A DNA stretch of 64,000 nucleotides from positions 64,097-128,096 of the IMG/VR virus record IMGVR_UViG_3300018080_000113. One strand, written 5' to 3'. How positions within the stretch are numbered: position 1 is the stretch's first letter; each line of letters opens with the position of its first letter. A program made the translations under genes and the position numbers. Below are positions 1,758 through 48,014 of the stretch, piece after piece. The notes below the pieces were generated by a model. It made no database searches. It was not told the DNA's origin and worked only from the letters and a program-made list of their open reading frames with translations. The stretch comes from a virus. Its lineage: Duplodnaviria; Heunggongvirae; Uroviricota; Caudoviricetes.

Positions 1758-3998
1758 TTAGTTGCTTGTCCTCATGGTACACGTACAGTGTGGATGCAAC
1801 GGAGGTAATTCTTCATAAATTATAGCATCTGTGGATTTGTATTTCAAAAACTGGTTGTCACAAATCTCACAAGGCTGACTTCCACTTCTAGTAGAACGTA
1901 TTTCTTCAAAACCATTTAGGCGATGACCACTAGATAATCCATAATTGTATGCTCTCATTATTTCACTGTTGTCTATCATACGAGTCCTATGTTCTAATGC
2001 ATCAAAAATAAGCCCTACAAAAACAGCATCTTCTATACGAAGCACTGTTCTTTTGGTAGTGTGCGATTTAATACGACTAATTAAATTATCACGTAGCTTA
2101 TTGACATATTTTTCCACATGATCATGAATTTTTGCATCAATCTTATCAAGTCGCACTTCCCAAACCATTCTACCGGTTTCATTTAACCCAGCCCTATATG
2201 CCTGTTTGGCTTGGCCAATCAATGTATCTCTAGCTTCAGCAAACGACATGTTAATAGAAAGCTCAAGTTTTGACATGGACACGCCATCTCTACGAACTTG
2301 ATTAACTATATCGTTCTTAATGCTACCATAAATACCAGCTAAAGGTCCGCTTTGCTTATAGATAAAGTCCAGAGTATCTTTGTTTATTTTGGCAGATGAA
2401 CGACTTCCATGTTGATTAGACGGTTTGTTTTTATTAGAAACAGCACTGCCGCCAGCAGAAGCATTCTTGGTAGAGTTAGCCTTTATCATTGCTTTTGCTT
2501 CATCTGTGCCAGGCTCATCAATAGATTGTAGGATAATTTTGTCTCTTTCGAAAAGTCCATAGTTTGTATTAGCAAAATCACCATCGCCAGAAGTAAACAT
2601 TTTATTCTTATTGTTAGCAGTTGGCCATCCATCGCCCTGATATGGTTCTAAGCCAATCATTTGACGCATCTCGTCATGTGTAATAGCATTCTTCAGGAAG
2701 ATATCAACAGCATGATTTTCTTTGGCCTGACGAGACTCCATGTCAATTTCTTTGAACTTTAATTTAACCATATTCTCTTCTTCTAACAGTGTAGATTCAG
2801 GAAAAGTAGATTCCATTAAAAGTTCTTGGATGACTAGTGCATAAAACTGAGCACCAAACTCTTTTTGGTCTGCCTTGGTGTCGTCAATAAGATTACGAGA
2901 CATAGTTTGTGCAGTACTGCGATTTGCAGTTCCGCCTTCGCCCATATCAACAGATGACACGCCAAGGCCAGTAAAGATTCTTTGTTTAAAATGCTCAACT
3001 ACTTTGTCTACAGCAACAGGACCAGAAGACACTTGTAGAGGAACAATCTCATGTCTCTCAGGAGTAACCCAGCAACCGTCTGAGGGCATTTGAGATACTT
3101 CTGTCTTAACTATATCAATCTCAGTACTGCCATCTGGAAATACTGCAGCAGGAGCATCTTGTGTTCCAACCTTATAGTGAAACAAGGGGAAAAGATGTTG
3201 ATATACGAGAAGCTCAATATTCTCTTCAATACGACGTAGAGCACGAATATCATCTTTAACAGGAACTAAAGAAGGAGTACCAACAGAATACCCAGGGCGT
3301 TTGTCGAAATAAAAATGAATAACATCCTCAGGACGAAACTCTTTCTCTACTTTACCTTGTAGCTCTTGTTGATACTTAACAATCTTACCAAACTCGTCAC
3401 GTTTAAAACGTACTGTTTCGGCGGGGACTAAAAAGTAACCAGCAACTGGCTCTAATCTTTTGCCATCTGCTGAAACACGTGTCTTGCCGCCAGAAGCAAC
3501 TTGCTTACGAACCTTAACCCAAAAAGCATTGGATGTTCTAACAAGAGAAGCTACTGTTTCAGACATCAATATAGGGAATGGCATACCAGTAGCATGTTCC
3601 ATTTGCTGTAAACGTTTTTTGATATAGCGAATTCTAGGAAGATTTGAACCTACAAATTCATAACCTTCTTTAAGGAATAGGTTTTTCTTTACTCTAAATG
3701 CTCGTCTAACATAGGCTTCAGTATCAATAATTCTGCCAGTCTCAACTAGGTCCCATTCTGGAAACTCCCAGCGAAGAGTAGGCGCTCTGCCTCTACCGAT
3801 ATTTGATGTATATACTTTTGTTGGAGGAGGAAGATGCTTAGGAATGATACTTTTCTTATCAGGAGTACGAAATCCATTATTCTTTGTGTCAGGAGCGTTC
3901 TGGTCTTTCTTAGATATAGTTTTAGCCATTACCGCCAGTTCTCCTCTCGTATTCGGCAATCCAATCTCTAGCTTTTGATAATTCATCTGCTGCAACAT
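1758..3998 (-). CDS. portal-like / head morphogenesis protein; C-terminus carries the SPP1 gp7 / Mu F-family motif (PPLHPHCTCT)
   Basis: 747-aa ORF; first ATG at 3998 (track start 4001 is GTG). The C-terminal HPxCxC motif is typical of Phage_Mu_F minor head proteins. It lies downstream of terL in the morphogenesis operon. Confidence 0.5.
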   Translation of the reverse strand: MLQQMNYQKLEIGLPNTRGELAVMAKTISKKDQNAPDTKNNGFRTPDKKSIIPKHLPPPTKVYTSNIGRGRAPTLRWEFPEWDLVETGRIIDTEAYVRRAFRVKKNLFLKEGYEFVGSNLPRIRYIKKRLQQMEHATGMPFPILMSETVASLVRTSNAFWVKVRKQVASGGKTRVSADGKRLEPVAGYFLVPAETVRFKRDEFGKIVKYQQELQGKVEKEFRPEDVIHFYFDKRPGYSVGTPSLVPVKDDIRALRRIEENIELLVYQHLFPLFHYKVGTQDAPAAVFPDGSTEIDIVKTEVSQMPSDGCWVTPERHEIVPLQVSSGPVAVDKVVEHFKQRIFTGLGVSSVDMGEGGTANRSTAQTMSRNLIDDTKADQKEFGAQFYALVIQELLMESTFPESTLLEEENMVKLKFKEIDMESRQAKENHAVDIFLKNAITHDEMRQMIGLEPYQGDGWPTANNKNKMFTSGDGDFANTNYGLFERDKIILQSIDEPGTDEAKAMIKANSTKNASAGGSAVSNKNKPSNQHGSRSSAKINKDTLDFIYKQSGPLAGIYGSIKNDIVNQVRRDGVSMSKLELSINMSFAEARDTLIGQAKQAYRAGLNETGRMVWEVRLDKIDAKIHDHVEKYVNKLRDNLISRIKSHTTKRTVLRIEDAVFVGLIFDALEHRTRMIDNSEIMRAYNYGLSSGHRLNGFEEIRSTRSGSQPCEICDNQFLKYKSTDAIIYEELPPLHPHCTCTMRTSN

Positions 3999-7163: not shown

Positions 7164-10100
7164 CTAAAAGTTCGAGCGCGAGGGTCGGTCTCTTCTAATT
7201 GTTTGGCGACCTCGCCTGCGCTGCAAAAACTCTGCAATATGTCTATCTTCATCATCAGTATCCCACCCAGGTTTATTTGTGCGAATACCATTTAAGCCAT
7301 TATCCACTCTTGCTGGCAAAGATGCAAACAGTTGTTCTTCAACAACAGTCTTTTGGAACCCTCCATCTAGTCTTCGTTCTTGAGGAGTAGAAACTCTTTC
7401 TTTGGATAGATTTTTGTCTGGAGAACCTTGGTTTTTTAATGTTCTTGGATCTGGAACAGACGCAACCTGTGTATTAACATTTCTAACATGCAAACTATCA
7501 AACTCTAACTGAAATGCAACAACAGCAAGATTAAAAGCATCAAGCCTATGGTCTAGTGCCTTAGGATCGTCAAGACCATAAACAGGAACTTTAGTTGGTG
7601 TAATTCTTTCAATTATATAACTTCTAAGTTGTTTTTCAAGAATATGATCATGAGACGAAAGCCTAATAGAGTTTTGTTCAAACAATCGTACAGAGGCATT
7701 AACCATAAATGGTTTTGCAGGAGACTTCTTTCTTTGTGCACTTACAGGATCACGAGTCTCAATCGAAGCACCTGCATCGTATTTCTTTAATATTCTTAAC
7801 AAATTAGCAGTATCTCTGTCTCCCTCTTTCTTCATGTTCTCATAGGCAGTTTTACGAAGAATCTCATAGTTGGTACTGCCATTACCTGCGTCAATATATA
7901 CAAAATGCGGCTTCCATTTACGATTCATTTCAAGTAGCTTAGATACGCCTGTAAGCTGTGTAAACTCAGAACGCTCAACATGTAAAGAATCCACTACCTG
8001 GAACATGTTTGTAAATGGATTAAACCCTAATACAACAATTTCAGTACCATGTTTCTCATTCCAGTCAGTTCCAATTGTGTATTTCCATGATGGGTTTCTT
8101 TGAATAGTTTTATATTCATAGTCCACAAGAGATCGATCAATATAAGATGGTTTATAAACACCAGCTTCTGCAGTTCCCCATTCGGCCAAATATTCGTGTT
8201 TCCAGTCTTCTTCTGTAAACTGTGCTTTCTCAGCCTCAACCTGACGCCACCAAGGAAGAACTTTATAAGTAAAGTGGAATTCTTTATAGTGCGGGTTCTC
8301 CTCACATAATGTATAGTATGGAGTCTTAAATCCTGTTGGGGTCGAGAAGCCTACAAGAGATGTGTGAGGCGACGTGTGTAGAATCGGCAAGATACCACTT
8401 CGAAGAGCAGTCTCGTCGATATAATCCATTTCCTCACAATTGTGAGTAAACAAACCGCCAGCAAAAAACCTATTTGCTGCTCCAGATGTTAAATTGTAAA
8501 CATCAACTGGCTCGTTACAAAACCTAACATTCTCTCTGATAACCGGAAGAAGAACATAGCCGTCTTTCCATGTTAATTTTTCAACCAACTCATAAGGAGT
8601 TAATAGTCTTTCAGAATATAATTTATCATATAGTTTCTTATGATATTTTATCGTAGACTTAGGAATATTAAGACTTAAAGATATTTTACTTGAAGTTCCA
8701 ACCTGAAGTCTAATTAAACGATTTTTTATCCATCTTTCTGATTTCCAATTTGATTCGTAGTGCCTATATAGCTTCCATGAATTAGCAAGCCTGGTTTTCT
8801 CTGCACTATAACAAAAACCAATTTTCTCAACAAAAGAATCAATGTTTTCTTTTGAGTTATTGATAGAAAGATATCCAACCCATCGATCTTCGTCAGCAAG
8901 TTGTTTAAAAGAAATTGAATATTTTATGTCTATTTCATCTAGCAAAGCACAAATATCAGAGAACCAAAGCTCGATCCATTCTTTTTGTTGGCTTCTCATA
9001 TTTAAAGCTAATGCTCTTGGCGTTCTATTGTTCTTTTGATATTTGACGCCTGTAGATTCAGCAGAAAACAAACCAGACAAGAAAGATGTTTTTAGACATG
9101 ACTTCCCATGTTTAATAAAACCAGGGACTCGAATTGGTTGTAAAACTTTTTTACCATCAGGGTGTAAATCTTTAAAGAACTTATAGGCATAAGAAGATCT
9201 TATCTGTGCACCAAAACCATAAATTCCTCGATCAACATTATTCATCTCTCTAGCAGAAATCTTGTGTTTCTTATCGCCAAGAGACATTAGGTCTATTTGA
9301 ACCTGTTCCAGATCTTCTGGCTGGCCAGACCATCCTACAATATTGCTAGAGATCCAGCCATCTCCATACATAAATCCTAACAATCTAGCAATTACATTTT
9401 CATACCCAAAAGTTAACTCTTTATGATAGAGAGAGACTACGACCTCTCTTGCGTCTTTGGCTTCAATGTCTTCTTTACCATTAAACAAAGGATGATCTGG
9501 AGTGCATTTGATAGTATTTAGTGCAGTAGGAACTGTGACCAAAGTGCCTTTTCTTATTCCTAGGTTTTGTATATCTCCTACGTACACTCCTTTCTCGTCT
9601 CCACCTAAAACAGTATCTTGAAGAGTTAGATCTTCAATAGGCTTAACAGAAAACTTAGATGTATTTACTAGTGTTCCTTTTGGGAAGCAATAGATATCAT
9701 CAGCATCTTGTCCACGACCTGCCAAACCTTCTTTCTTACCTTTGGCGCCACCAGCAAACCCACGTGCACGAGAACCATTACGAAGTTTAATCTCATAGTA
9801 TGGAGCCGCAACATCTCTAATAACAGAATCTTTAAGAATAGGATTAGCAGCAATAAATGCACGAATACGAGTAAAGATTTCTTCAACATGAACTTTTTGA
9901 GGGCCAGTAACAAATATCTTACGATCTGTACTAGTAAAAAGCTTAAATAAGATTTCCATACACACAGAATCAGTTTTTCCCGTTCGTCGGCCAATACGTA
10001 AAACCTTACGTCGGGATGTACAGCGAAGAACTTGTTCTTGGTACCATCTGGCTACCCACGGAAGATTGCCAGGTAATTTAGCAAATTGTTTAGCAAATTC

Positions 10101-10352
10101 AACCTTATCTCTAACAGAACGAAGAATATCTAATTGAGTATCAGTTTTGGTAGCCTTCTCCATTGGAGATACAAGTTCGTTTGAAATACCAGTACAAGGA
10201 ACCATAAAGTTCTTACCAACTGCCTGGCCTTCATAGATATGTTTTTCGTACTTTTTAATCTGTGCACGAACACATTCATGGCATTGCGGAATGACCTTAT
10301 CTACATCAAATGGTAAATTAAGATCTCTTAAGTCAGCTAATTCATCTTTCAT
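7164..10352 (-). CDS. terL: terminase large subunit interrupted by an intein (extein ~645 aa)
   Basis: Walker A VLRIGRRTGKTD. After intein removal the junction reads ...DADDIY/CEEMDYIDE (Walker B-like). A C-terminal nuclease-like region (LDHRLDAFNLAVVAF) follows. Confidence 0.85.
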   Translation of the reverse strand: MKDELADLRDLNLPFDVDKVIPQCHECVRAQIKKYEKHIYEGQAVGKNFMVPCTGISNELVSPMEKATKTDTQLDILRSVRDKVEFAKQFAKLPGNLPWVARWYQEQVLRCTSRRKVLRIGRRTGKTDSVCMEILFKLFTSTDRKIFVTGPQKVHVEEIFTRIRAFIAANPILKDSVIRDVAAPYYEIKLRNGSRARGFAGGAKGKKEGLAGRGQDADDIYCFPKGTLVNTSKFSVKPIEDLTLQDTVLGGDEKGVYVGDIQNLGIRKGTLVTVPTALNTIKCTPDHPLFNGKEDIEAKDAREVVVSLYHKELTFGYENVIARLLGFMYGDGWISSNIVGWSGQPEDLEQVQIDLMSLGDKKHKISAREMNNVDRGIYGFGAQIRSSYAYKFFKDLHPDGKKVLQPIRVPGFIKHGKSCLKTSFLSGLFSAESTGVKYQKNNRTPRALALNMRSQQKEWIELWFSDICALLDEIDIKYSISFKQLADEDRWVGYLSINNSKENIDSFVEKIGFCYSAEKTRLANSWKLYRHYESNWKSERWIKNRLIRLQVGTSSKISLSLNIPKSTIKYHKKLYDKLYSERLLTPYELVEKLTWKDGYVLLPVIRENVRFCNEPVDVYNLTSGAANRFFAGGLFTHNCEEMDYIDETALRSGILPILHTSPHTSLVGFSTPTGFKTPYYTLCEENPHYKEFHFTYKVLPWWRQVEAEKAQFTEEDWKHEYLAEWGTAEAGVYKPSYIDRSLVDYEYKTIQRNPSWKYTIGTDWNEKHGTEIVVLGFNPFTNMFQVVDSLHVERSEFTQLTGVSKLLEMNRKWKPHFVYIDAGNGSTNYEILRKTAYENMKKEGDRDTANLLRILKKYDAGASIETRDPVSAQRKKSPAKPFMVNASVRLFEQNSIRLSSHDHILEKQLRSYIIERITPTKVPVYGLDDPKALDHRLDAFNLAVVAFQLEFDSLHVRNVNTQVASVPDPRTLKNQGSPDKNLSKERVSTPQERRLDGGFQKTVVEEQLFASLPARVDNGLNGIRTNKPGWDTDDEDRHIAEFLQRRRGRQTIRRDRPSRSNF
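8439..9689 (-). mobile_element. intein (~417 aa) with LAGLIDADG homing-endonuclease domain inside terL
   Basis: N-terminal splice block CFPKGTLV starts with Cys, codon at 9689-9687. LAGLIDADG motifs are LLGFMYGDGW and FLSGLFSAES. C-terminal block FTHN is followed by Cys+1, Asn codon 8441-8439. Boundaries were checked by reverse-complement translation. Confidence 0.75.
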
Positions 10353-10403
10353 ATTGTCACCTAAGACAGAATTGTATAGAAATATTATATATTTGTACAG
10401 TGC

Positions 10404-11150
10404 TTATTGATGTAGCATTACGCCTTCTCTACCAAGCATAGACCTAGAACTCATCTGTCCTCTATTCATGGCCTGCAAAGACTGTTGTCTCATGGTAGAT
10501 GCTTTGCGTGTTTGAAATGCAGACATATCATTTGTCCAGTTAAGATTTCTTTTAGATCTTTCTCTTTCAACCATTCTGTCTGGAATCCTGCTAAGAGCCT
10601 GGAATCCTTCGTCAGAACTAATGGCGCCCATAAGCCCACCAGCTATAGCTCCTATTGCAGTTCCTACACCAGGAAGAATCGCAGAGCCAATACTCATTCC
10701 TACTCGCGAACCAATTTCCCAACCAACCTGTCCAACTAAACCGCCAGTTGCTGCTCTAGCCTTCTCTTGTCCACTACCTGGCGTTAGTACGGCTGGCAGT
10801 CCAATAAGTGCAGCGCCGACACCAACTCTTGCAGCAGAGCGTAAAGCACTTACCTTTCCTGGGCCTTTTGATGCTTTTGCTATAGCATTCCTAATATTAA
10901 GATTGTGTGGATCTACTTTTTGCATTCGTCGAAGATTAGAAAGATGTTCTGGGCTTCCAAAGCCGACCTTTCTCCTCCATGGAGCCTTTATTGCTTCTCT
11001 GGTTGTTGGCGCAAACATACTGCTAGCAAAGCCACCACCGCGAGCCATAGCAGAAGGAAAAGAACTTTTAGCAAACTGATGCAGGTCCCAAGATAACTCT
11101 TGACGAATAGTAGAGTTAATCCCATGTGGATTTTGGGAAAACCATTTCAT
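10404..11150 (-). CDS. Gly/Ala-rich hydrophobic protein (possible internal virion/ejection protein)
   Basis: 248-aa ORF with GxxxG-rich segments; in the structural operon. Confidence 0.5.
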   Translation of the reverse strand: MKWFSQNPHGINSTIRQELSWDLHQFAKSSFPSAMARGGGFASSMFAPTTREAIKAPWRRKVGFGSPEHLSNLRRMQKVDPHNLNIRNAIAKASKGPGKVSALRSAARVGVGAALIGLPAVLTPGSGQEKARAATGGLVGQVGWEIGSRVGMSIGSAILPGVGTAIGAIAGGLMGAISSDEGFQALSRIPDRMVERERSKRNLNWTNDMSAFQTRKASTMRQQSLQAMNRGQMSSRSMLGREGVMLHQ

Positions 11151-11153
11151 AGA

Positions 11154-11642
11154 TTAATAGCCTCTATTTGAGGAAAGAACAGAAGAACCAATATGAGCCG
11201 CAGAAGCAGTGCCAATTGCGCCCATTGCCATGCCGCCATATTTATTAACAGCAGTAGCATTACGTCCTATAGCACTACGAGCGCCAGCCATACCCATGCC
11301 AACGCCTCTTGCCATATCTGCACCGTATCCAGCAGCAACTCCGCCAAGTCCAGTTCCGCCTACAAGAGATCTAGCTGCTGCGTTAGTAAGTTTACCTCTT
11401 CCCCATTTGGCTCCTCGAATGCCCATTCCTAAAGCACCACGAGACATTCCTGCAATGCCACCACGTCTACGCGCAAGATTCCCAGCCATCTTTACTCCTG
11501 CTCCACCCATAAGACCACCGCCAAGTGCTCCGCCTGCAGCGCCCATCCAGCCGCCGCCACCAGAACCGCCATAAATACCACCAGCAGCTGCTCCCCAAGC
11601 TGTTCTACCTAAAAGACTCATATCTTCACTCCCTTTGATCAA
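11154..11642 (-). CDS. glycine-rich protein (possible internal virion protein)
   Basis: 162-aa ORF, more than 40% Gly/Ala/Met. Plus-strand Pro/Ala-rich ORFs overlapping it are antisense artefacts. Confidence 0.5.
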   Translation of the reverse strand: MIKGSEDMSLLGRTAWGAAAGGIYGGSGGGGWMGAAGGALGGGLMGGAGVKMAGNLARRRGGIAGMSRGALGMGIRGAKWGRGKLTNAAARSLVGGTGLGGVAAGYGADMARGVGMGMAGARSAIGRNATAVNKYGGMAMGAIGTASAAHIGSSVLSSNRGY

Positions 11643-11665
11643 AGAAAAAGTTGTATACAGTTATA

Positions 11666-15714: not shown

Positions 15715-15877
15715 TGTCTCATCCTCCTATTAGGTTCCCTAAAATATGTAGGGAAGTGTAGGGTCATTATTGACCACTGTCTCCTTATATAAGGAGTACA
15801 TATACATATATAGTCACGATTCTTATAGTGTCAAGATTTAGAATAAAAATATTTTAGAAATAATCAAAAACCTATGT

Positions 15878-15951
15878 GGAAACTGAAATGAAAAATTATG
15901 GTGATACCTTTTCTAGAGAGAAACTGAAAAGAAATATATTTTGGTAATACC
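15878..15951. repeat. two ~32-nt direct repeats (GAAACTGAAA...GGTGATACC / GGTAATACC) in the divergent intergenic region
   Basis: Seen directly at 15878-15908 and 15918-15951, upstream of the GC-rich plus-strand ORF and of the hsp20 operon start. Confidence 0.5.
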
Positions 15952-16041
15952 TAGTATGAAGTGTAGGGGTGGTAGGTGCCCCTCTGTGTTCGGAGCCCAC
16001 GGGGTCCACAACAGCTGCAAGGCGCAGCAGAAGGAGTCGTC

Positions 16042-16362
16042 ATGACTAATCAAAACAACACAACTAACAACAATAACAATACTCTGAGATTCAGTGATTT
16101 AAGTGTACAAGAGAATATTGAAGACACTATCAGGATGATGAGTCCTATTGTTAATGAAGAGGTGACTACTCCTGGTAGTACACCTGTGTACATGAGTGTG
16201 AGGGACGAGTGTACCGTCCCTGATGCTATCAGTGGAGAGGACAGACTAGCGTACGTGTGTACGTTGGTCGTACTTAACAATATGAGTAGCACTGACCTTA
16301 GTGCTGCTCTAGACGAGGCAGAGGAGAGAGTACTGTGGCTCTCACTGGTGAACGGTACGTAG
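16042..16362 (+). CDS. hypothetical protein, GC-rich foreign composition (N-terminus MTNQNNTTNNNNN)
   Basis: ATG 16042 preceded by AGGAGTC. Shares its SD+ATGAC start context and Asn/Thr-rich N-terminus with the 16672 gene. Confidence 0.4.
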   Translation: MTNQNNTTNNNNNTLRFSDLSVQENIEDTIRMMSPIVNEEVTTPGSTPVYMSVRDECTVPDAISGEDRLAYVCTLVVLNNMSSTDLSAALDEAEERVLWLSLVNGT

Positions 16363-16399
16363 ATAGCAGTAGTAGCGGTAGTAGGGCGTAGGTACTCAG

Positions 16400-16580
16400 G
16401 CCTACCTGTGTGTTCAAGTCACACTCACCCTGTATATGTACATGTGTGTACACTAAGGCCCAGTCTACATGGTAGATGGATGGGAGATACACTGGTGTGT
16501 GCATGTATGTACGTATGTGTATCTGTATGTGTATGCATACAGGTACATGCATGGGTATATGTGTATAGGTACGTATGGTA
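16400..16580. repeat. GT/AC-rich alternating purine-pyrimidine low-complexity tract (TGTATG/TGCATG-like units)
   Basis: Seen directly. ORFs across it on either strand are low-complexity artefacts. Confidence 0.6.
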
Positions 16581-16581
16581 T

Positions 16582-16660
16582 GTGCCTATATGTGTATACC
16601 CCTATATAAGGGTACCCCTATATGGAGGGGTGCCTATATGACATGCCCTATATGGGGCAA
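16582..16660. repeat. five iteron-like direct repeats G(Y)RCC(C)CTATAT(R)(R)
   Basis: Copies of CCTATAT at 16584, 16602, 16617, 16633 and 16646 with conserved flanks, immediately upstream of the 16672 gene. Confidence 0.55.
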
Positions 16661-16671
16661 AGGAGTCTATC

Positions 16672-17652
16672 ATGACAACTCTCAATAACAACACCCTCGT
16701 CGTCGCCATCGCCAACGCCCGCAACCTCAACGGTCTGACCCAAGAGGCCAAGGCTGTAGAGAACAAGTGGTGGGGTGACCTATCCCTGGCATGGGATGCC
16801 ATCAGGGAACTAAACCCTGTAGACGACACCACCGGTGAGAGGGATGAGGCTATCGTAGGGCGCTGCTATGGGGAGAGCCATGTGGCAGAGGCCTATGGTA
16901 TCAACTGGATCGAGATGCACTGTGATCGGGAGCTGTGGGACATGGAACAGAGAGATTTGGCCCTCAGGGACATGTATCCTGTAGCAAAGAAGTTGGCCAG
17001 AGAGGCCATCAGTGAGAAACAACAAGATGCAGCCAAACATCTTATGGTAGCCGTAATCAACATGGGCAGGTCCACTGTAGAGGACATGAATAAGTACGAT
17101 GGGGCCAAAAGGATGGATGATAGGGCCAATGAGCTGAAGAGCGACTACACCTCCAGGTGGGAGCGTAGCCGTATGCTCCTAGAGTATATCTCTGAAGGCA
17201 TCAATGACTGGGACGCTAAAACCGTCCTTAAGTATATCAACCTCTGTGACAGGAGGAACAAGCTCGACAAGAAAGATGAGTATCGGATGCTCTTCCCGTT
17301 CTACATTGCCAGCGGTGTACTACTGCATGCCGCTATGGCAGAAAGGGGCTACGGCAAACTCCAAAACAGAAGCAAGGGACTGCTCAATTGGTTCTTGGAG
17401 AAGTATGACCATCATGACGTAGAGGCACAGGTAGTACCCCAAGAGGATGATGAAGTAGTCAAGTTCGGGTTCGATGAGAACCGGGACAGTGACGAAGAGG
17501 CGACCGATAAGGTGGCAGGGAATGCCTTCTCTGTCAATGTGGATAGCATGATAGACCTTAAGGACTATTGTGTTCGAGAGGCAGGAAAGAGAGGTGTTAC
17601 TCCCATGGAGGTGCTAGAGGAGATAGATGAGAGTCAGGTCAACTGGCTCTAG
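16672..17652 (+). CDS. hypothetical protein, GC-rich (~55-60% GC versus ~37% background)
   Basis: 326-aa ORF with AGGAGTC SD; codon usage is clearly atypical for this genome. Confidence 0.55.
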   Translation: MTTLNNNTLVVAIANARNLNGLTQEAKAVENKWWGDLSLAWDAIRELNPVDDTTGERDEAIVGRCYGESHVAEAYGINWIEMHCDRELWDMEQRDLALRDMYPVAKKLAREAISEKQQDAAKHLMVAVINMGRSTVEDMNKYDGAKRMDDRANELKSDYTSRWERSRMLLEYISEGINDWDAKTVLKYINLCDRRNKLDKKDEYRMLFPFYIASGVLLHAAMAERGYGKLQNRSKGLLNWFLEKYDHHDVEAQVVPQEDDEVVKFGFDENRDSDEEATDKVAGNAFSVNVDSMIDLKDYCVREAGKRGVTPMEVLEEIDESQVNWL

Positions 17653-17659
17653 CCCTTAG

Positions 17660-18115
17660 GGCTGTAGGTATTTAGGCCTGCTTGCTGTTCGAGTCAGCAC
17701 AGCTCTATACCACGCTTCGCTCCGCTCCCTTCGGTCGCTTCGCTCAGCTACTCGCTGCAGCTCGCCTCTTGCTTGCGCAAGAGTCAAGCCTCCGCTCAAA
17801 CATCGTAGACAGAGCTTCGCTCCGTCTCAGGCACACCTCTTGCTGTCGCAAGAGTTGCGCCTTCAACTACGCTTCGCATTGAACTCGCTCACTTCGTTCG
17901 CTCAAACATCAATCATCAACTCCGCTTCGCTGCGGCACAGCTCTTGCTTACGCAAGACCTCTGCCTTCGCTTCACTTCATACGGAGCTGACAATTGGACG
18001 TTACCAACTGACGTCTTCGACATCAATTGGACAACTTGAACCCTTCAGGTTCTTCGACATCAGTCGTCGTTATCACTCCTCCTTTCGAGCACATGCGGAT
18101 ATAAGAGCGAGATAG
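17660..18115. repeat. GC-rich array of CGCTTCGC units and three hairpins with stems CTCTTGC / GCAAGAG
   Basis: CGCTTCGCT-like units occur at least 6 times. Hairpins lie at roughly 17768, 17838 and 17942. AGCCCTTAGGGCT hairpin at 17654. Confidence 0.6.
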
Positions 18116-18642
18116 TAGATGTACTTGTAGTCTCTATCCATAGAACTATTCGCTTTGCTTTATGTATTGAGTAGTTGTTATTTGATACCTACAGAGTGGG
18201 TGTTTCGCCCCAAGAAGAAGCTGGGTTGTTTGTCCCGAAACAAGCTCTAAATGCATACACATACAGACAGAGTTTTATCTCCCCCCGTGGAGCAATGTGA
18301 CTCTATTTGTCTAAGTGTTTGTAATCATTAGATAGTGAGTTTGATTGTTTATGCATAGTATTGTTTGATACATGCATGAATTATGTTGTTTTGCTGCGGC
18401 AAACACACTCACTGATGGCACAATCATATATTCCCATACAGTAATATATACTGTACTGCTTACAGAATAACACCGTAAGGGATAAGCCTTATGACTGTTA
18501 GGTAGTTAGGGAGTATTAGGGGAACTGTTTAGAATCATTGGGATTCTGTTCTCCTTAGGTGTTGTAGAAGGAAGGTATTTTACTGTACCTAGGTAGTTTT
18601 CAAGGTATAGTCTATTTGTTACAAACGAACAGGAGGTATCTA

Positions 18643-18789
18643 ATGCCTACAAGGAATGTGGTGAAAGAACTGGTTAAAGATTTCAACTGTCTTGAGTGTG
18701 GGTGTTATGAAACAGTCACAAAGGAAATAGGTGAGCAATTGGAATACAGTTTTGATACGCCCGAAGAGAAAGAATTCTGTTATGGATAA
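18643..18789 (+). CDS. small Cys-containing protein (48 aa)
   Basis: ACAGGAGG SD, ATG 18643; first gene of the plus-strand block. Confidence 0.4.
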   Translation: MPTRNVVKELVKDFNCLECGCYETVTKEIGEQLEYSFDTPEEKEFCYG

Positions 18790-22734: not shown

Positions 22735-23115
22735 ATGGATTCTAACAAATTGATAAGTGAAGCAGAAGCAATGTCCAGGGTACTAGATTCACTGGTAGAC
22801 AGATATCTCACACATGCTGTCGTAGAAATGAGGAAAACAATTCACAAGGCAATAGGTTTTAATGACCTAGACCAAGAAGCAAACCAAAACTTAGATGGAG
22901 CAATTTGGTCAACAATTGCCAAAATTTCAGGAGAAGAAACAAAAAAACAAGGGAAAAGATTCATTCAAGAAATGAAGAAAAGGATTCTAGAGAATCCTAC
23001 TAATGTCCCAGATTTTCTGCGTAATTCAATTAATGAACTCAGTGAAACACCAGAGTTCAAAGACAAGAATGACAATACTCCCCCACTAACGACAACCAAG
23101 GTAGAGGAAGCGTAA
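22735..23115 (+). CDS. hypothetical protein
   Basis: 126-aa ORF. Confidence 0.45.
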   Translation: MDSNKLISEAEAMSRVLDSLVDRYLTHAVVEMRKTIHKAIGFNDLDQEANQNLDGAIWSTIAKISGEETKKQGKRFIQEMKKRILENPTNVPDFLRNSINELSETPEFKDKNDNTPPLTTTKVEEA

Positions 23116-23933
23116 TGAAGGTTCTGATTATGCGAGGCATATCAGGCTCAGGCAAGAGCACATATGCTAACAACATTGCCAAACAATCTGACAAAGCAAT
23201 CATTTGTTCTGCTGACAACTTCTGGATTGATGATGTAGGCAATTACAACTTTGACCGAAACAGACTCAGTGAAGCTCATGCATGGTGCTACGCTCACTTT
23301 GTAGGAACACTAACAACTAACTATCATGACATTGTAATTGTGGACAATACAAACACTCAACTATCTGAAATAGCTCCATACATTGCACATGCCAACTATC
23401 ACAATGCAGACATTGAAATTGTTAGGTGTGTATGCCCGCATGAAGAAGCAGCTAAACGTAACGTTCATGGCGTACCTGCAAAGACTGTTGAGTCAATGCA
23501 GAAACGTATGCAATCTCTACCAAGACATTGGCCGAAAGAAACAATTGTAGAAACAGACTTGCCATTTCTGCAAAGACTAACAAACGAGTGCGAGGTAATA
23601 CAACCACTGAAACTAACAAACAAATGTGACCAATGTGACCATTGGGATTGTTGTAGTGACTGTACAGAACTAACAGGAGAAGAAATAGTTCCAGCAGGAT
23701 TCGACAGTAAACTCTGTTGGGATATCCACAAAGAACTAGATAGACTCGAAACAGGTCTAAGTGCTCAATACAAAATTACAAAAGGAAAAATAGAAATAAG
23801 TAATTGCTGGAGTAGATTTGGACCATACGACGCAGTATTGTTACTTGAATGTTTAGAGTCAATTAAAGGTGACAAAACCGACGAAGACATCATAAGAACA
23901 ATCAAAATGAATTTTGGAGGAAGCCCATTCTAA
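23115..23933 (+). CDS. P-loop kinase (polynucleotide-kinase / AAA_33-like N-domain) with Cys-rich C-terminal domain
   Basis: GISGSGKST Walker A in the first 15 residues, followed by a downstream Asp (CSADNF). Confidence 0.55.
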   Translation: MKVLIMRGISGSGKSTYANNIAKQSDKAIICSADNFWIDDVGNYNFDRNRLSEAHAWCYAHFVGTLTTNYHDIVIVDNTNTQLSEIAPYIAHANYHNADIEIVRCVCPHEEAAKRNVHGVPAKTVESMQKRMQSLPRHWPKETIVETDLPFLQRLTNECEVIQPLKLTNKCDQCDHWDCCSDCTELTGEEIVPAGFDSKLCWDIHKELDRLETGLSAQYKITKGKIEISNCWSRFGPYDAVLLLECLESIKGDKTDEDIIRTIKMNFGGSPF

Positions 23934-32966: not shown

Positions 32967-33339
32967 GGGTCTGACACGGTTTAGACTTTATTGTGACGGG
33001 TGACAATGCATGTCTCGGGGTGGGTATCACCGAGTTAAAAAGATAACCAAAACAGTAATTGGCGAAGATTACTACCCAATGCAGGCTGCTGCTTAAGCAC
33101 CTGCCGTCAACGCTAGCAAGTGTTACATAACTAGTTGAGGCGTCATTTTATGTAATTGCTCTCAAGGAGTTACCGGATGTACTTGAGAAAAGACTAAATA
33201 TCCTGTCCCTAGAATATGATTGTTTTGTTTGTTTTATCAATTATATGAGAGGGTGGCTCGGTAAAGAAAACATTCTAAACATGTGAATGATTTGCATTTA
33301 GATCAATGAAGGACCTCGGTTCGACTCCGAGCAGATCCA
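32967..33339 (+). ncRNA. ssrA: tmRNA (SsrA), one-piece; predicted tag GEDYYPMQAAA-stop
   Basis: 5' GGGTCTG pairs with 3' CAGATCC, giving a G3:U70 alanine identity pair. The 3' end is GGAC + T-arm (CTCGG TTCGACT CCGAG) + acceptor + discriminator A. GTGACGGG lies near the 5' end. An A-rich run precedes the tag frame 33061-33096, which ends GCT GCT GCT TAA. Confidence 0.7.
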
Positions 33340-33523
33340 AAATCAATGTTTTGTATTAGTTTCCAGTTTCTCTATAAGAACTGGTGGTGGAGGCGATGGG
33401 AAACCTGAGCCCTTGTCGTGAACTGGGTGCGACATAAAACAATACGGTGCGAAACCAGAGGCGAACGTCTTAATCCTCGACAGTAAAATCAGGCGTGACT
33501 ACTAGGAGAGACTAGTTCTTTAT

Positions 33524-41517: not shown

Positions 41518-42384
41518 ATGTTTGATAGTCTTGGCGACCGCATGAAGAAATATGAGAAGACTGAAACAGGCAGAAAATTTATGCCTTTGCTTCCTGTAGT
41601 AGCAAGAATAGACGGAAAGGCTTTTCATACTTGGACCAAAGGACTTGATAGACCATTTGATGCTGACATGATTCAAATCATGCAGAATACTACCAAAAAA
41701 CTTGTTGAAGAAACTAGTGCTAAGGTTGGTTATACACAAAGTGACGAGATCTCTCTTGTGTTCTATTCAGATGATATTGAAAGTCAAATATTCTTTGATG
41801 GCAAAATCTTTAAGATGACTAGTGTACTTGCTAGTATGACTACTGCTATTTTCAACGAAAAAATTCTTAGTTTAGCAGGTAATTTGTACAATGATTCTAC
41901 TTGTTACGAAACAGAGACAACAAGAAGACTTAATAAAATAGTTACAAAACCAATGGCATTATTTGATTGTAGAGTGTGGCAAATGCCTACAAAGGAAGAA
42001 GTTTGTAACTATCTAGTTTGGCGCGAGCAAGACGCAGTAAGAAATAGTATTCAATCTGTAGGCCAAGCCAATTTTTCTCAGAAACAATTGCATGGTAAAA
42101 GCCAAAAAGAAATTCAAGAAATGTTGTTTCAAGAAAAAGACATCAACTGGAATGACTGCTTAATAGCTGAGAAGAGAGGAACTTACTTTCAGAAGCGTCA
42201 AGTAGAAAGGATGTTCTCTGTGAATGAACTTACAAAGCTTCCTGAGAAACATGAGGCTAAAAAGAATCCTTATCTTAAAGTTCTTCGAAATGACATTGTT
42301 ACTTTAAACATGCCTAGACTTGCTTCTATTGATAATAGGATAGAGGTTGTTTTTGATGGAGCTGAGCCAGTTATAAAAAGGTAA
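41518..42384 (+). CDS. Thg1-like tRNA-His guanylyltransferase / 3'-5' polymerase (TLP)
   Basis: N-terminal RIDGKAFHTWTK and metal-binding YTQSDEISLVF are the Thg1 hallmark blocks. Confidence 0.65.
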   Translation: MFDSLGDRMKKYEKTETGRKFMPLLPVVARIDGKAFHTWTKGLDRPFDADMIQIMQNTTKKLVEETSAKVGYTQSDEISLVFYSDDIESQIFFDGKIFKMTSVLASMTTAIFNEKILSLAGNLYNDSTCYETETTRRLNKIVTKPMALFDCRVWQMPTKEEVCNYLVWREQDAVRNSIQSVGQANFSQKQLHGKSQKEIQEMLFQEKDINWNDCLIAEKRGTYFQKRQVERMFSVNELTKLPEKHEAKKNPYLKVLRNDIVTLNMPRLASIDNRIEVVFDGAEPVIKR

Positions 42385-43265: not shown

Positions 43266-43493
43266 ATGGGATATTGGCAAAAAGAACCTGATCTTCTATT
43301 TAGAAAAGGCATGGATATGTTTGGCAAGTTTGACTGGGAAAACTATACATACATGGGCAAAGATAAAGAAGATGCTGTTGTGACAGCATTCCTAGATGAC
43401 AATAATCTAGTAGAAATGACAATAACTTCTGCATGTGTTGGATTCTCATATACTTTTCAGAAAAGACCAAGAGTAAAAACCAATGATAATTAA
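43266..43493 (+). CDS. hypothetical protein
   Basis: 75-aa ORF. Confidence 0.45.
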   Translation: MGYWQKEPDLLFRKGMDMFGKFDWENYTYMGKDKEDAVVTAFLDDNNLVEMTITSACVGFSYTFQKRPRVKTNDN

Positions 43494-44679
43494 ATCAATC
43501 TTAGATACAGATTTATATAAACTTACGATGGGCCAAGCTATTGCCCAAAAGTTTCCTCATGCCAAAGCTCAATATAAATTCATTAATCGTGGCGGAACCA
43601 AATTTCTCCGTAGCACTGCAAGAGAGCTTAAGCAAGAAATTCAAAATATGGCAAGTCTTAAGCTTAGTGCAAATGAAAAGGACTGGCTTAGAGCAAACTG
43701 TTCATACTTCAATCCTGTTTATCTAGATTTCTTGGCAGGGTATAAATATGACCCTTCTGAAGTAGATGTTAGATTCTATAGTACATCATCAGAAGACGAT
43801 GGGTCTGATATGGCATTAGGAGATATTGATATTACAATTACAGGGCCTTGGTATCGCACTGTTTATTGGGAAGTTCCATTGATGGCAATTGTCTCTGAGC
43901 TATACAACAGGAACAGTAAACAACCTAGTTATTGTGACATTGAAACTGTTGTAGAGAAAAGCAAAACATTGACTAGCAACGAATGTTTCTTTGCTGACTT
44001 TGGTACGAGAAGAAGATTTAGCCAACAACACCATGACAAAGTAGTAAAAACTTTAGACAAACAGATGGGTACATTTGTCGGTACAAGCAATGTTCATTTG
44101 GCAATGCAATATCAAGTTAAACCAATTGGGACTCAGGCACATGAATGGTTTATGTTCCATGGTGCAAAATATGGTTATCGCGAAGCTAATAGAATAGCAC
44201 TTAAGAACTGGGTTGACGTTTATCATGGTAGTCTTGGTATTGCATTAACAGATACTTTTGGTACTGATGATTTCTTTAAGAGCTTTGGCTCAAAATATTC
44301 AAAACTATTTGATGGCATTCGTCACGATAGTGGCGACTGGAATACATTTGCAAAAACTACTATTGCACATTATTTGAAAAAAAACATTAACCCTAATACT
44401 AAAACGATTGTATTTTCAGATGGTCTTAATGTAAAAAAAGTTCTTGAAATAAATAAAGCTTATGACAGAAGAATCAAATGTTCTTATGGTATTGGCACAA
44501 ACCTTACTAACGATATTAAAGATGGAGCAAAACCACTTAATATGGTTATCAAAATGACAAGCTGTAAGCCTTATGAAGAACATAATTGGTTGCCGGTTGT
44601 TAAGTTGTCTGACGACAAGGGCAAACATACAGGCGCTTCTGAAGAGATTGAATTGTGTAAAAAAACATTGAGGCTATAA
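43483..44679 (+). CDS. pncB: nicotinate phosphoribosyltransferase
   Basis: Blocks match E. coli PncB: ILDTDLYKLTM, GPWYRTVYWEVPLMAIVSE, DFGTRRRFS, GTSN, IGTQAHEWF, GIALTD, RHDSGD, FSDGLN, YGIGT, KLSDDKGK. Confidence 0.85.
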   Translation: MIIKSILDTDLYKLTMGQAIAQKFPHAKAQYKFINRGGTKFLRSTARELKQEIQNMASLKLSANEKDWLRANCSYFNPVYLDFLAGYKYDPSEVDVRFYSTSSEDDGSDMALGDIDITITGPWYRTVYWEVPLMAIVSELYNRNSKQPSYCDIETVVEKSKTLTSNECFFADFGTRRRFSQQHHDKVVKTLDKQMGTFVGTSNVHLAMQYQVKPIGTQAHEWFMFHGAKYGYREANRIALKNWVDVYHGSLGIALTDTFGTDDFFKSFGSKYSKLFDGIRHDSGDWNTFAKTTIAHYLKKNINPNTKTIVFSDGLNVKKVLEINKAYDRRIKCSYGIGTNLTNDIKDGAKPLNMVIKMTSCKPYEEHNWLPVVKLSDDKGKHTGASEEIELCKKTLRL

Positions 44680-45730: not shown

Positions 45731-46270
45731 ATGAAAACTCTAATCGTAGTAGACGCACAAAAAGATTTTATGCCTGGTGGAAACTTAGCAGTCCCAAATG
45801 GTGATGAAATTGTTCCATATATTAATAACATTAAAAAGAACTATGATTTAGTTATTTGGACAAAAGATTGGCATCCACAGAATCATTGTTCTTTCTTGGC
45901 ACAAGGTGGTATTTGGCCTGAACATTGTGTTCAAATGAGTCAAAATGCTGCATTGCATGGCAATCTAGAAGTTCTTGGTGAAGACTATGTTGTTACTAAA
46001 GGATGCAATCAAAAGTTTGATAGCTATAGTGCATTCTTTGACGATGGCGGAACCGATACGGGCTTAGAATCTTTACTCGTTAGCAGAGGAATAACAGAGA
46101 TTGACATCTGTGGCTTGGCACTTGAATATTGCGTAAAATTTACTGTATTAGATGCGTTGAAACTTGGACACAAGGTAAATCTACTTACGTCTGGTTGTCG
46201 TGGAATTGACAACAATGATGTTGCTTCTGCTTTAACAGAAATGAAAACTAAAGGTGCAAACATTATCTAG
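45731..46270 (+). CDS. pncA: nicotinamidase (isochorismatase family)
   Basis: LIVVDAQKDF (catalytic Asp), DWHPQNHCSF (metal site), VVTKG (Lys), DICGLALEYCV (Cys). Confidence 0.8.
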   Translation: MKTLIVVDAQKDFMPGGNLAVPNGDEIVPYINNIKKNYDLVIWTKDWHPQNHCSFLAQGGIWPEHCVQMSQNAALHGNLEVLGEDYVVTKGCNQKFDSYSAFFDDGGTDTGLESLLVSRGITEIDICGLALEYCVKFTVLDALKLGHKVNLLTSGCRGIDNNDVASALTEMKTKGANII

Positions 46271-46279
46271 GAGTACAAA

Positions 46280-46822
46280 ATGACAATAATAGGTTTGCTG
46301 GGCGGTACGTTTGATCCTCCTCATCTTGGTCATCTTGCAGTAGCAAGAATAGCATTGTGGACTGGCGATATTGATGCAGTATGGATGCTTCCTTGTTGGG
46401 AACATGCTTTTGGCAAAAAACCAAAAGACTTTCATCATAGAGCAAGTATGTGTCAACAGATGGTAGAAGAAGAGAAAGATGTTCTTGTTTGTACCGATGA
46501 GGCAGAAATTAAATCAAAATGCGCAATGGACATTCTGACCTATATTATAAAGAAAAATCCTGACAAAGAATTTAGATTGATTCTTGGTACTGATAATTAC
46601 TGGAAAATGGATCAATGGGAAGATAGGCCTGGAGTTTATAAACTAGCAAGGCCTCTTTGGGTCGAACGCTCTGGCGAGTCTAGAATTCCTGAAAGGGTTT
46701 GTTTTCTTAGTAATGACATTAGTTCTACAAAGGCAAGACAAGCTCTTACTGATGGAGAGCCAGTAAATGAAATGCTGCACGATAAAGTAATTAAATATAT
46801 TGTGCAAAATAAGGTTTATTAA
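46280..46822 (+). CDS. nadD: nicotinate/nicotinamide mononucleotide adenylyltransferase
   Basis: GGTFDPPHLGHL nucleotidyltransferase motif and C-terminal ISSTKAR. Confidence 0.8.
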   Translation: MTIIGLLGGTFDPPHLGHLAVARIALWTGDIDAVWMLPCWEHAFGKKPKDFHHRASMCQQMVEEEKDVLVCTDEAEIKSKCAMDILTYIIKKNPDKEFRLILGTDNYWKMDQWEDRPGVYKLARPLWVERSGESRIPERVCFLSNDISSTKARQALTDGEPVNEMLHDKVIKYIVQNKVY

Positions 46823-46823
46823 A

Positions 46824-47048
46824 ATGGTATATGCAGTTAATGCTAACCAAACAGCTAGAGCGGCATTATCTGAAGAGATGAAGCCTGTCTTTGGCCAAAT
46901 TGCTGAAGTTGCTTCAGAGGGGTTGTTTGCTACTCAAATAAGAGTAGAACCAAAAAACTTTCTTCGTTTTAAAAGAGAGTTAGAAAGAAGAAGATTTGAA
47001 GTTGAAGGACACATGAACGTTTTATATATTGAATGGCATACAGTATGA
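46824..47048 (+). CDS. hypothetical protein
   Basis: Internal ATG of ORF 46800..47048, right after the nadD stop. Confidence 0.4.
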   Translation: MVYAVNANQTARAALSEEMKPVFGQIAEVASEGLFATQIRVEPKNFLRFKRELERRRFEVEGHMNVLYIEWHTV

Positions 47049-47053
47049 GCTAA

Positions 47054-47126
47054 GGGCGTATGGTGAAATTGGATATCATAAAAGATTTCTACTTTTTTGT
47101 TCTGGGTTCAAATCCTAGTGCGCCTG
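47054..47126 (+). tRNA. tRNA, anticodon TTC (Glu-like); weak D-stem and U37
   Basis: Acceptor GGGCGTA/TGCGCCT. Anticodon arm AAAAG-ATTTCTA-CTTTT. T-arm CTGGG TTCAAAT CCTAG. Confidence 0.45.
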
Positions 47127-47131
47127 CTGAA

Positions 47132-47204
47132 GTCTGCGTGGCCAAATTGGTACGGCATCTGACTGCAAATCAGAAGATTGTGGGTTCAACTCCCTCCGCA
47201 GACT
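47132..47204 (+). tRNA. tRNA-Cys (GCA)
   Basis: Acceptor GTCTGCG/CGCAGAC. Anticodon arm TCTGA-CTGCAAA-TCAGA. T-loop TTCAACT. Confidence 0.75.
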
Positions 47205-47224
47205 CTAAAAGATAAGGAGTTGGC

Positions 47225-48007: not shown

Positions 48008-48014
48008 TGAGAGT

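Follow-up and report, generated by a model that had tools for sequence, protein, structure and literature searches.

In the T4-type phages, PeSL cassettes consist of small exchangeable early open reading frames (ORFs) bracketed by repeated regulatory stem-loops, and in the early region of phage T7, long hairpins between cistrons are cut at RNase III sites to yield stable early mRNAs. At the level of DNA, GCGNAGC and GCGNNAGC are two forms of an extraordinarily stable mini-hairpin. Template-strand mini-hairpins with GGA or GAA loops form the early promoters of the phage N4 virion polymerase, and mini-hairpin motifs mark the primase start sites of phages G4, St-1, and alpha3 and of ssiA. In plant mitochondria, RNase P and RNase Z create mRNA ends at tRNA-like sequences termed t-elements (PMC1920247), and hammerhead ribozymes flank cistrons in the polycistronic RNAs of phages and prophages (Perreault et al. 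2011, PMC3088659). The locus considered here is an island at positions 15950-18060 of a 64,000-nucleotide (nt) stretch of a tailed-phage genome (IMG/VR record IMGVR_UViG_3300018080_000113, positions 64,097 to 128,096; hereafter, the window). It carries tRNA-like elements on its plus strand and an array of mini-hairpins on its minus strand.

The island is best read, at a little under an even chance, as a conserved transcription unit, the first of the rightward block, in a rare lineage of large uncultured phages, with non-coding DNA that would hold functional structures on both strands. Leftward genes of this large tailed phage include those for the portal, the large terminase, and GroES-like and Hsp20-like proteins. 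Rightward genes start at the island and continue with many small ORFs, a transfer-messenger RNA (tmRNA), at least 11 tRNAs, a Ro60 ortholog, a Thg1-like enzyme, an RNA ligase, and rIIA. This layout places the island at the divergent switch between two gene blocks, and it suggests that the rightward block is early. The module encodes two proteins on the plus strand. ORF1 (16042-16362; 106 amino acids) has a homolog in one related locus only, L002, and is not related to ORF2. The latter (16672-17652; 326 amino acids, predicted all-helical) belongs to a rare family with 4 clusters in a collection of 5.8 billion proteins and 13 representatives among 1.84 billion proteins.

ORF2-family proteins, together with an invariant 19-mer with which the module starts, led to eight related loci (L001, L002, L006, L008, L009, L011, L014, and L143). 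Synteny is evident in L001, L002, and L008, the three loci taken into the flank comparison, where the module lies between homologs of the window's flanking genes; L011 and L014 have the conserved leader and small-ORF architecture in common with the window. For the ORF2 protein, identity amounts to 48% with the L001 copy and to 39% with the L008 copy, compared with 38-66% for the flanking genes. Being as diverged as its flanks or more, ORF2 is an old, co-diverging part of the genome rather than a recent import. The small-ORF content, however, varies between relatives and is different in each.

Composition is conserved as well. Between 15950 and 18050, the GC content is 0.503, compared with 0.383 in the remainder of the window, which makes this the most GC-rich 2.1-kb stretch of the 64 kb (runner-up, 0.443). 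An earlier note on this DNA had reported a jump to 55-60%; the jump is real, but values of 0.56-0.595 are reached in 200-nt windows only, so that figure describes local peaks and not the level of the island. The GC content at third codon positions (GC3) is 0.64 in ORF2 and 0.47 in ORF1, compared with 0.23-0.37 in 15 other genes of the window. The same excess marks the module in relatives (0.476 versus 0.35 in L001, 0.444 versus 0.344 in L008, and 0.45 versus 0.364 in L011), and GC3 is 0.45-0.64 in ORF2 homologs and 0.22-0.45 in their neighbor genes. High GC content here follows from the density of stems and from an unusual ORF2 codon usage conserved across relatives. The relatives carry the segment, as the earlier note would have expected of ordinary diverged sequence, but its codon usage is anomalous and its repeats are conserved.

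Among the plus-strand structures is one that the earlier note had overlooked, a repeat of about 50 nt after each stop codon (16382-16435 and 17657-17710). The repeat is a tRNA-like element composed of a 7-bp acceptor-like stem, a 5-6-bp hairpin, and a T arm with a UUCRAGU loop, without a D arm; such elements start 5-20 nt after stop codons. Element B (16382-16435) begins 20 nt past the ORF1 stop codon and combines an acceptor-like stem with a 6-bp hairpin and the T arm GUGUG-UUCAAGU-CACAC. Element C (17657-17710) begins 5 nt past the ORF2 stop codon and has the 7-bp acceptor AGGGCUG/CAGCUCU, a hairpin, and the T arm UGCUG-UUCGAGU-CAGCA. Because of their G-U pairs, the structure of these elements belongs to the plus strand.

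A covariance model (R1) built from four copies of the element, with the window copy at 16382-16435 left out of the seed, recovers that copy with 41.3 bits (E = 4.5e-10); weaker matches of R1 in the window include real tRNA genes. In the five copies taken together, the proportion of cells that pair is 95%. Six pairs carry changes on both sides, and covariation is seen in four of the five T-stem pairs; not one shuffle out of 500 attained these values, and slid controls pair at only 32-46%. Furthermore, under strict search criteria that required both an acceptor stem and a T arm with a TTCRANN loop, six elements were retrieved in 13.9 kb of modules versus 0.04 in shuffles, and the rest of the window yielded real tRNAs and the tmRNA only. 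At 17659-17705 of the window and in five relatives, a 7-bp acceptor is stacked without a break on a 5-bp T stem whose 7-nt loop is of the TTCRANN type. Neither window element is called by ARAGORN or by the Rfam tRNA model at E <= 10, and the mitochondrial mode of ARAGORN is too permissive. An L014 element matches the Rfam model of the MALAT1-associated small cytoplasmic RNA (mascRNA) with 31 bits (E = 0.009), below the threshold of 42.5. The elements share with t-elements and mascRNA a tRNA-like fold with a conserved T arm, set within a longer transcript beside a coding region. By analogy, they may be processing or stability signals that are cleaved by RNase P and RNase Z.

Structure also precedes the genes of the module. 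A leader hairpin (15964-15986, plus strand) is kept in position in six phages with a stem sequence that is different in each; when each leader is folded singly, the six hairpins have energies of -7.4 to -11.8 kcal/mol. Single-sequence folds were used since the hairpins are out of register in the MAFFT alignment, which makes RNAalifold unsuitable. The hairpin is followed by the invariant 19-mer CGTTCGGAGCCCACGGGGT (15987-16005, plus strand), which starts the module, occurs once in the window, and is identical in six loci but for one base in L001. Next comes a hairpin before the ORF1 ribosome-binding site, CTGC..GCAG (16014-16028, plus strand), which reads ATGC..GCAT in L002. More generally, at each of 21 gene starts in seven loci, a stable fold lies just upstream of the AAGGAG ribosome-binding site; it is mostly a hairpin that ends 2-6 nt from this site. 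These folds average -12.0 kcal/mol, compared with -4.7 kcal/mol at 36 other starts of the window (p = 3.5e-9). All module ORFs in all relatives have the start context AAGGAG plus ATGAC. Since this context is general to the module, it gives no indication that ORF1 and ORF2 are paralogs, as the earlier note had supposed; that relationship was rejected (BLASTP E = 6.7).

The spacer between the two ORFs (16363-16671) consists of element B and a run of 14-23-bp hairpins, and its fold is stronger on the plus strand (z score of -3.6 to -3.7) than on the minus strand (-1.8). These hairpins account for the TGTATG-type GT-rich tract seen by the earlier note, which is indeed present at about 16430-16600. 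A long hairpin (16436-16515, plus strand) encloses a conserved element of about 55 nt (16448-16508; AAGGCCCAGU..AUGGAUGGGAG..ACUGG) that is also found in L002 and L008, with two compensatory pairs and four changes to G-U. Two long, near-perfect hairpins (16516-16549 and 16554-16600, plus strand, the latter of 23 bp) form the alternating tract itself. The five CCTATAT units described as iterons are likewise there (16585-16659, plus strand; units at 16585, 16601, 16617, 16633, and 16647, with spacings of 16, 16, 16, and 14). Each of them sits within the short palindrome CCC-TATAT-GGG, and the fifth (16644-16659) is the hairpin that precedes the ORF2 ribosome-binding site. The island holds 5 of the 11 CCTATAT copies in the 64 kb, and neither this motif nor TACCTATATG, TACCTAS, or ACGCTTCGC is enriched outside it, so they are not general promoters within the 64 kb. 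An Rfam search of the island at E <= 10 returned only low-complexity, microRNA-like matches on the GT-rich hairpins. Separately, a perfect 17-nt inverted repeat (TCTGTATGTGTATGCAT / ATGCATACACATACAGA; 16522-16538 and 18251-18267, 1712 nt apart) brackets ORF2, a tRNA-like element, and the array; it is far beyond chance length, though of low complexity.

In L011, a candidate self-cleaving ribozyme occupies a comparable position. The sequence at 10936-11003 of that locus, between two small ORFs, scores 36.3 bits with the hammerhead model, just under the Rfam threshold of 37. It has a complete CGAAAC / GUC / CUGAUGA core with three stems, and a 5-bp pseudoknot between loop I and the tail (UAGCC:GGCUA), read by eye, agrees with what PMC3088659 describes for type II. 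It is thus a near-threshold, putative type II hammerhead. A further conserved element follows the first small ORF of L001 (955-1040) and L002 (700-790) and consists of CUGAUGAG and two hairpins; it was rejected as a canonical hammerhead, since it is without the GAAA core, and is hammerhead-like only. L011 and L014 also contain, between the 19-mer and the first small gene, stretches of 650-880 nt without an ORF (10096-10748 and 2586-3463, respectively) that have one 40-nt block in common; each could specify a large non-coding RNA.

Past element C, the prominent structures are on the other strand. The mini-hairpin array (17712-18060, minus strand) contains five GCGAAGC, one GCGGAGC, and three GCGNNAGC motifs. 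All GCGAAGC and GCGGAGC copies fall within 17714-17930; read on the plus strand, GCTTCGC occurs five times in that interval and nowhere else on that strand in the window. The CGCTTCGC units that the earlier note had recorded as an array are present and read GCGAAGC on the minus strand, a strand asymmetry that had gone unremarked. The minus-strand hairpin tips are GCGCAAGC, GCGACAGC, and GCGTAAGC. The three GCGNNAGC motifs cap the CTCTTGC/GCAAGAG hairpins, which are also as previously described (CTCTTGC-N4-GCAAGAG at 17766-17783, 17837-17854, and 17941-17957), except that the third is one pair shorter. A 9-bp hairpin (17806-17826) and a 12-bp hairpin (17998-18024), both on the minus strand, have a GAA triloop each.

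Motif enrichment in the array is confined to one strand: 9 of the 19 minus-strand mini-hairpin motifs of the 64 kb lie within 234 nt, where the plus strand has none. Counting both strands, the window holds 35 such motifs, the other 26 being scattered. In L001, L002, L006, and L009, all mini-hairpin motifs fall inside the arrays and on the same strand, as do eight of nine in L008. The array folds with a z score of -9.2 to -9.4 on the minus strand and -3.2 to -3.7 on the plus strand. Moreover, the CTCTTGC-type hairpins of six phages are more stable on the minus strand in 10 of 10 cases, by 1.5-8.7 kcal/mol, because what pairs as G-T there is an A-C mismatch on the plus strand. Covariation is also found in the stems (CTC/GAG, GAT/ATC, TCA/TGA, and TTC/GAA). 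The plus strand of the array is pyrimidine-rich, unlike sense strands elsewhere in the genome. As in the N4 early promoters, the heptamer GCG(G/A)AGC with a 3-nt purine loop lies on the template strand. ORF2-family genes precede the array in the window, L001, L006, and L008, and in L009 the array flanks such a gene. L011, on the other hand, carries an array but no ORF2, and the ORF that precedes the L143 array has no detectable relation to ORF2.

A mechanism can be proposed from these features. Conservation, synteny, covariation, strand asymmetry, and motif enrichment are shown by the sequences, whereas the early timing, the enzymes, and initiation at the array are inferred. The module transcript would open with the leader hairpin and the invariant 19-mer, and each of its cistrons would have a hairpin before its AAGGAG, with tRNA-like elements after the stops and 14-23-bp hairpins between cistrons. 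RNase P and RNase Z would cut at the tRNA-like elements and RNase III at the long hairpins, turning a polycistronic RNA into stable single-gene mRNAs; in L011, the putative hammerhead between small ORFs would perform equivalent cutting. The minus strand 3ʹ of ORF2 is the template strand for the rightward genes, and its mini-hairpin cluster, embedded in stems whose pairing is complete on this strand only, may serve as an initiation region. The array could then be a set of hairpin promoters of the N4 virion polymerase type, of primase or replication start sites, or of both, serving the DNA to its right.

Several observations weigh against this account. The relatives are all metagenomic, and few of them are independent. 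The covariation of the tRNA-like elements is based on five copies from only three phages, and four of these five copies were used to build the model. The elements have neither a D arm nor an adjacent CCA end, and their anticodon-like loop measures 6 or 8 nt and not 7 nt. A scan for sigma-70 promoters and intrinsic terminators stayed at chance level and yielded no sigma-70-type promoter for the module or the array, and no ribozyme match was obtained in the window with Rfam at E <= 10. Regarding the array, its strand asymmetry is weak or absent in L001, L002, and L011, and the minus-strand GUAA and GCAA loops are GNRA tetraloops, which are equally suited to RNA. N4 promoters have a 5-7-bp stem and a -17 to +1 block with an A-tract, whereas the six triloop copies of the array have stems of 2 bp (four copies), 4 bp (one copy), and 9 bp (one copy); the conserved flank is the opposite one (GTGGT), and there is no A-tract. 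Finally, screening of ORFs in the 64 kb, several large ones of which are without a family match, revealed no gene for a primase or a virion-type RNA polymerase.

Of the ways to read the array, a template-strand initiation region ranks ahead of an antisense RNA, which in turn ranks ahead of a classical iteron origin. The second of these would make 17712-18060 a leftward gene for a structured non-coding RNA of about 350 nt, composed of repeated GNRA-capped modules, converging on the end of the ORF2 transcript and perhaps acting together with the ORF2 protein. It is unlikely. In its favor, the minus strand folds much better than the plus strand (z score of -9.4 versus -3.7), at least seven G-U pairs exist on the minus strand only, including some in a 16-bp closing stem, the GUAA and GCAA loops belong to the GNRA class, the minus strand is purine-rich like sense strands elsewhere in the genome, and the array adjoins ORF2-family genes in the window and in L001, L006, L008, and L009. 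However, the promoter and terminator scan found no leftward signal, no Rfam family matches, and the asymmetry does not extend to L001, L002, and L011. As for the motifs themselves, GCGAAGC (a 2-bp stem closed by a GAA triloop) confers stability on DNA and is not known to do so in RNA, and the loop of the second hairpin is GACA, which is not a GNRA loop yet fits the DNA motif GCGNNAGC. That the whole island is a replication origin, as the earlier note had also proposed, is doubtful. ORF2 would be the initiator, the five CCTATAT and five to six ACGCTTCGC repeats its binding sites, the mini-hairpins a primase entry site, and 18051-18643 the unwinding region. Such an arrangement would account for repeats on either side of a conserved ORF2 and for arrays beside ORF2-family genes in five loci, and the motifs that mark primase start sites in G4, St-1, alpha3, and ssiA do occur in the array. 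A Fis-type DNA-binding helix-turn-helix is moreover added in two distant members of the ORF2 family. In ORF2 itself, by contrast, the corresponding position holds a short tail that was judged by eye to be without a recognition helix. ORF2 matches no replication or initiator family. Neither ORF has a match in Pfam or PHROGs, an ORF2 profile search against solved structures returned chance matches only, and the AlphaFold model (predicted local distance difference test score, 52) is too poor for a fold search. Iteron origins have phased repeats of about 17-22 bp, an initiator gene, an AT-rich unwinding region, and DnaA boxes. Here the repeat cores are 7-9 nt, their spacings of 16 nt and 23-77 nt are not in helical phase, DnaA boxes are at chance level with no cluster, and the proposed unwinding region has background GC content (0.39). 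The CCTATAT units are short tandem palindromes with little likeness to the repeats that initiators bind, and the covariation of array stems points to structure and not to sequence-specific binding of duplex DNA; additionally, the L011 array exists without ORF2. A cumulative GC-skew minimum does lie near the island, but it coincides with the switch in transcription direction and so carries no extra information.

Two further explanations deny the non-coding DNA a present function. The earlier note had suggested a horizontally acquired module, which here would mean a recently acquired foreign cassette, or moron, from a GC-richer donor, with the repeats as its decaying remains. The atypical composition typical of such islands is present, with GC and GC3 far from the genome norm, the small-ORF content varies between relatives, a nearly identical non-coding block is held in common with the divergent L006, and there are breaks to the left and right of the island in two other assemblies. 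Even so, recent import is very unlikely. A moron should be missing in close relatives and show less divergence than the DNA around it, whereas this island occupies the same position in L001, L002, and L008 with an ORF2 at least as diverged as the flanking genes. Its compositional excess is conserved and not decaying, covariation and invariant blocks indicate that the non-coding elements are under selection, and no integrase, transposase, or target duplication is present. As for the tRNA-like elements, they might be dead remnants of tRNA genes or former integration sites, given that the phage has at least 11 tRNA genes and a tmRNA and that the elements are without D arms and proper anticodon loops. 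This is hardly tenable, as compensatory changes preserve the stems, several phages have elements truncated in the same way at the same place, directly behind stop codons, and, in the window, the elements are confined to the module, 30 kb from the tRNA cluster.

While the module as a whole is old, parts of it are exchanged. A non-coding block (17866-18222) is about 97% identical to positions 683-1003 of L006 (about 320 nt), bar a 37-nt duplication, despite ORF2 proteins that are only about 50% identical between the two. This discrepancy indicates that the locus is plastic and recombines, and together with the differing small ORFs it bears out the earlier suggestion of a hypervariable or recombination hotspot. 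The end of the conserved block in L006 (967-1003) contains the ribosome-binding site and start codon GAAGGAGGGTTCATG of a gene that is absent from the window. The window counterpart (18186-18222) reads GAAGCTGGGTTGTTTG with no gene, and the window phage therefore appears to have lost a downstream cassette. Two contigs from other assemblies, L004 (15444-18402) and L005 (15481-18346), are 100% identical to the window and span only the island and about 300-500 nt to its left and right. That independent assemblies stop at almost identical points could be due to differences in coverage or to strain variation near the borders.

The lineage is scarce in sequence collections. DNA and protein searches of an annotated phage collection gave no match for the island, its left flank, or ORF2. 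In a viral collection, three pattern scans and an ORF2 profile scan found nothing, and a scan with the hairpin sequence added L143 as the sole new relative. A scan of a genome collection for the 16 leader-block bases GTTCGGAGCCCACGGG was swamped by chance matches in GC-rich genomes.

Around the module, an AT-rich divergent spacer (15715-15949; GC content, 0.29) separates the leftward Hsp20 gene from the rightward module. It includes a perfect 16-nt palindrome, CTCCTTATATAAGGAG (15783-15798), that is kept in L008 along with the adjoining boxes TAGTCACGA and TGTCAAGA; judged from sequence, it is a candidate operator of divergent promoters. The box ATACCTAGTAT (15946-15956) is also conserved, and a ACCTAGTAT box is present in five of six leaders. 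On the distal side, non-coding DNA at 18223-18643 neither folds significantly nor contains an ORF, and it has no relative. The inverted repeat TGTTTCG...CGAAACA that the earlier note had placed beyond the array does exist (18201-18207 and 18236-18242) but is 7 nt long and no better than neighboring repeats.

Elsewhere in the window, a second GC peak (up to 0.595; 11154-11642) coincides with a Gly/Ala-rich, 162-amino-acid ORF on the minus strand, and 11250-11650 was rejected as a second island because this protein explains the peak. The Ro60 ortholog (TROVE and vWA domains; 48129-49742) lies within the tRNA cluster. No Y-RNA family match occurs in 46000-52200, so any partner RNA of Ro60 would be of an undescribed type. 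The Thg1-like enzyme (41518-42384), the RNA ligase (52168-53478), an AAA_33 kinase-like protein (23115-23933), and the phage's own tmRNA (32967-33342) are an RNA-repair and translation-rescue set. NAMPT is encoded at 43483-44679 and rIIA at 61560-63761. A 126-nt Rfam tRNA match at 50245-50370 (52.6 bits), which ARAGORN does not call, may represent a tRNA gene interrupted by an insertion or an intron. The large-terminase ORF (7164-10352; 1062 amino acids) matches terminase over residues 639-956 only and may include a long N-terminal extension or an inserted element.

Several consequences would follow. If RNase P and RNase Z cut the elements, the "tRNA punctuation" mode of mRNA maturation known from mitochondria and mascRNA would reach bacteriophages, with tRNA-like elements and a self-cleaving ribozyme both found between cistrons of homologous modules. 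If the array is an initiation region, recognition of hairpin DNA would extend past N4-like phages and small single-stranded replicons. A bolder and rather improbable proposition joins the two: a lineage of large phages unrelated to N4 that starts infection with immediate-early mRNAs punctuated by tRNA-like elements (in some members, by a hammerhead between cistrons) and matured by tRNA-processing enzymes of the host, and with initiation at extruded template-strand mini-hairpins. It would imply an injected or very early enzyme, polymerase or primase, that recognizes hairpin DNA, and neither device has been described for bacteriophages outside its original setting. Independent of mechanism, the conserved GC and GC3 excess illustrates that an unusual composition is not in itself a sign of recent transfer. 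The invariant 19-mer and the covariance model provide handles for finding this rare phage group in metagenomes, and the 50-nt tRNA-like fold and the mini-hairpin array are possible parts for studies of RNA processing or DNA structure.

Compared with known systems, the module most resembles t-elements and mascRNA in its punctuation, having a non-canonical tRNA-like fold with a conserved T arm and acceptor stem in longer transcripts beside coding regions. It differs in that the elements belong to a phage operon, measure about 50 nt, have no D arm and a 6-nt loop in the anticodon-like arm, and are placed systematically after stop codons, and in that their cleavage is predicted only. Like the hammerheads of Perreault et al., they lie between small genes of mobile-element transcripts, and L011 has a type II candidate with the pseudoknot; the window spacers, however, are filled by tRNA-like elements and long hairpins and not by a ribozyme. 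Small exchangeable ORFs with repeated stem-loops and long hairpins between cistrons recall the PeSL cassettes and the T7 early region, whereas here the punctuation is tRNA-like and no sigma-70 early promoter is detectable beside the stem-loops. The array resembles the N4 early promoters in its GC-rich heptamer GCG(G/A)AGC on the template strand, its GNA triloop closed by C-G, its several close copies upstream of rightward and presumably early genes, and a pairing that favors the template strand. It departs from them in its mostly 2-bp stems, in having no A-tract or -17 to +1 block, in its nine motifs versus three, and in a genome of about 140 kb that is not N4-like. Finally, as in the complementary-strand origins of G4, St-1, and alpha3 and in ssiA of RSF1010, GCGNNAGC or GCGNAGC is carried in larger hairpins on one strand; those are single-stranded replicons with one or two hairpins, whereas here the motifs form a cluster in a double-stranded phage genome.

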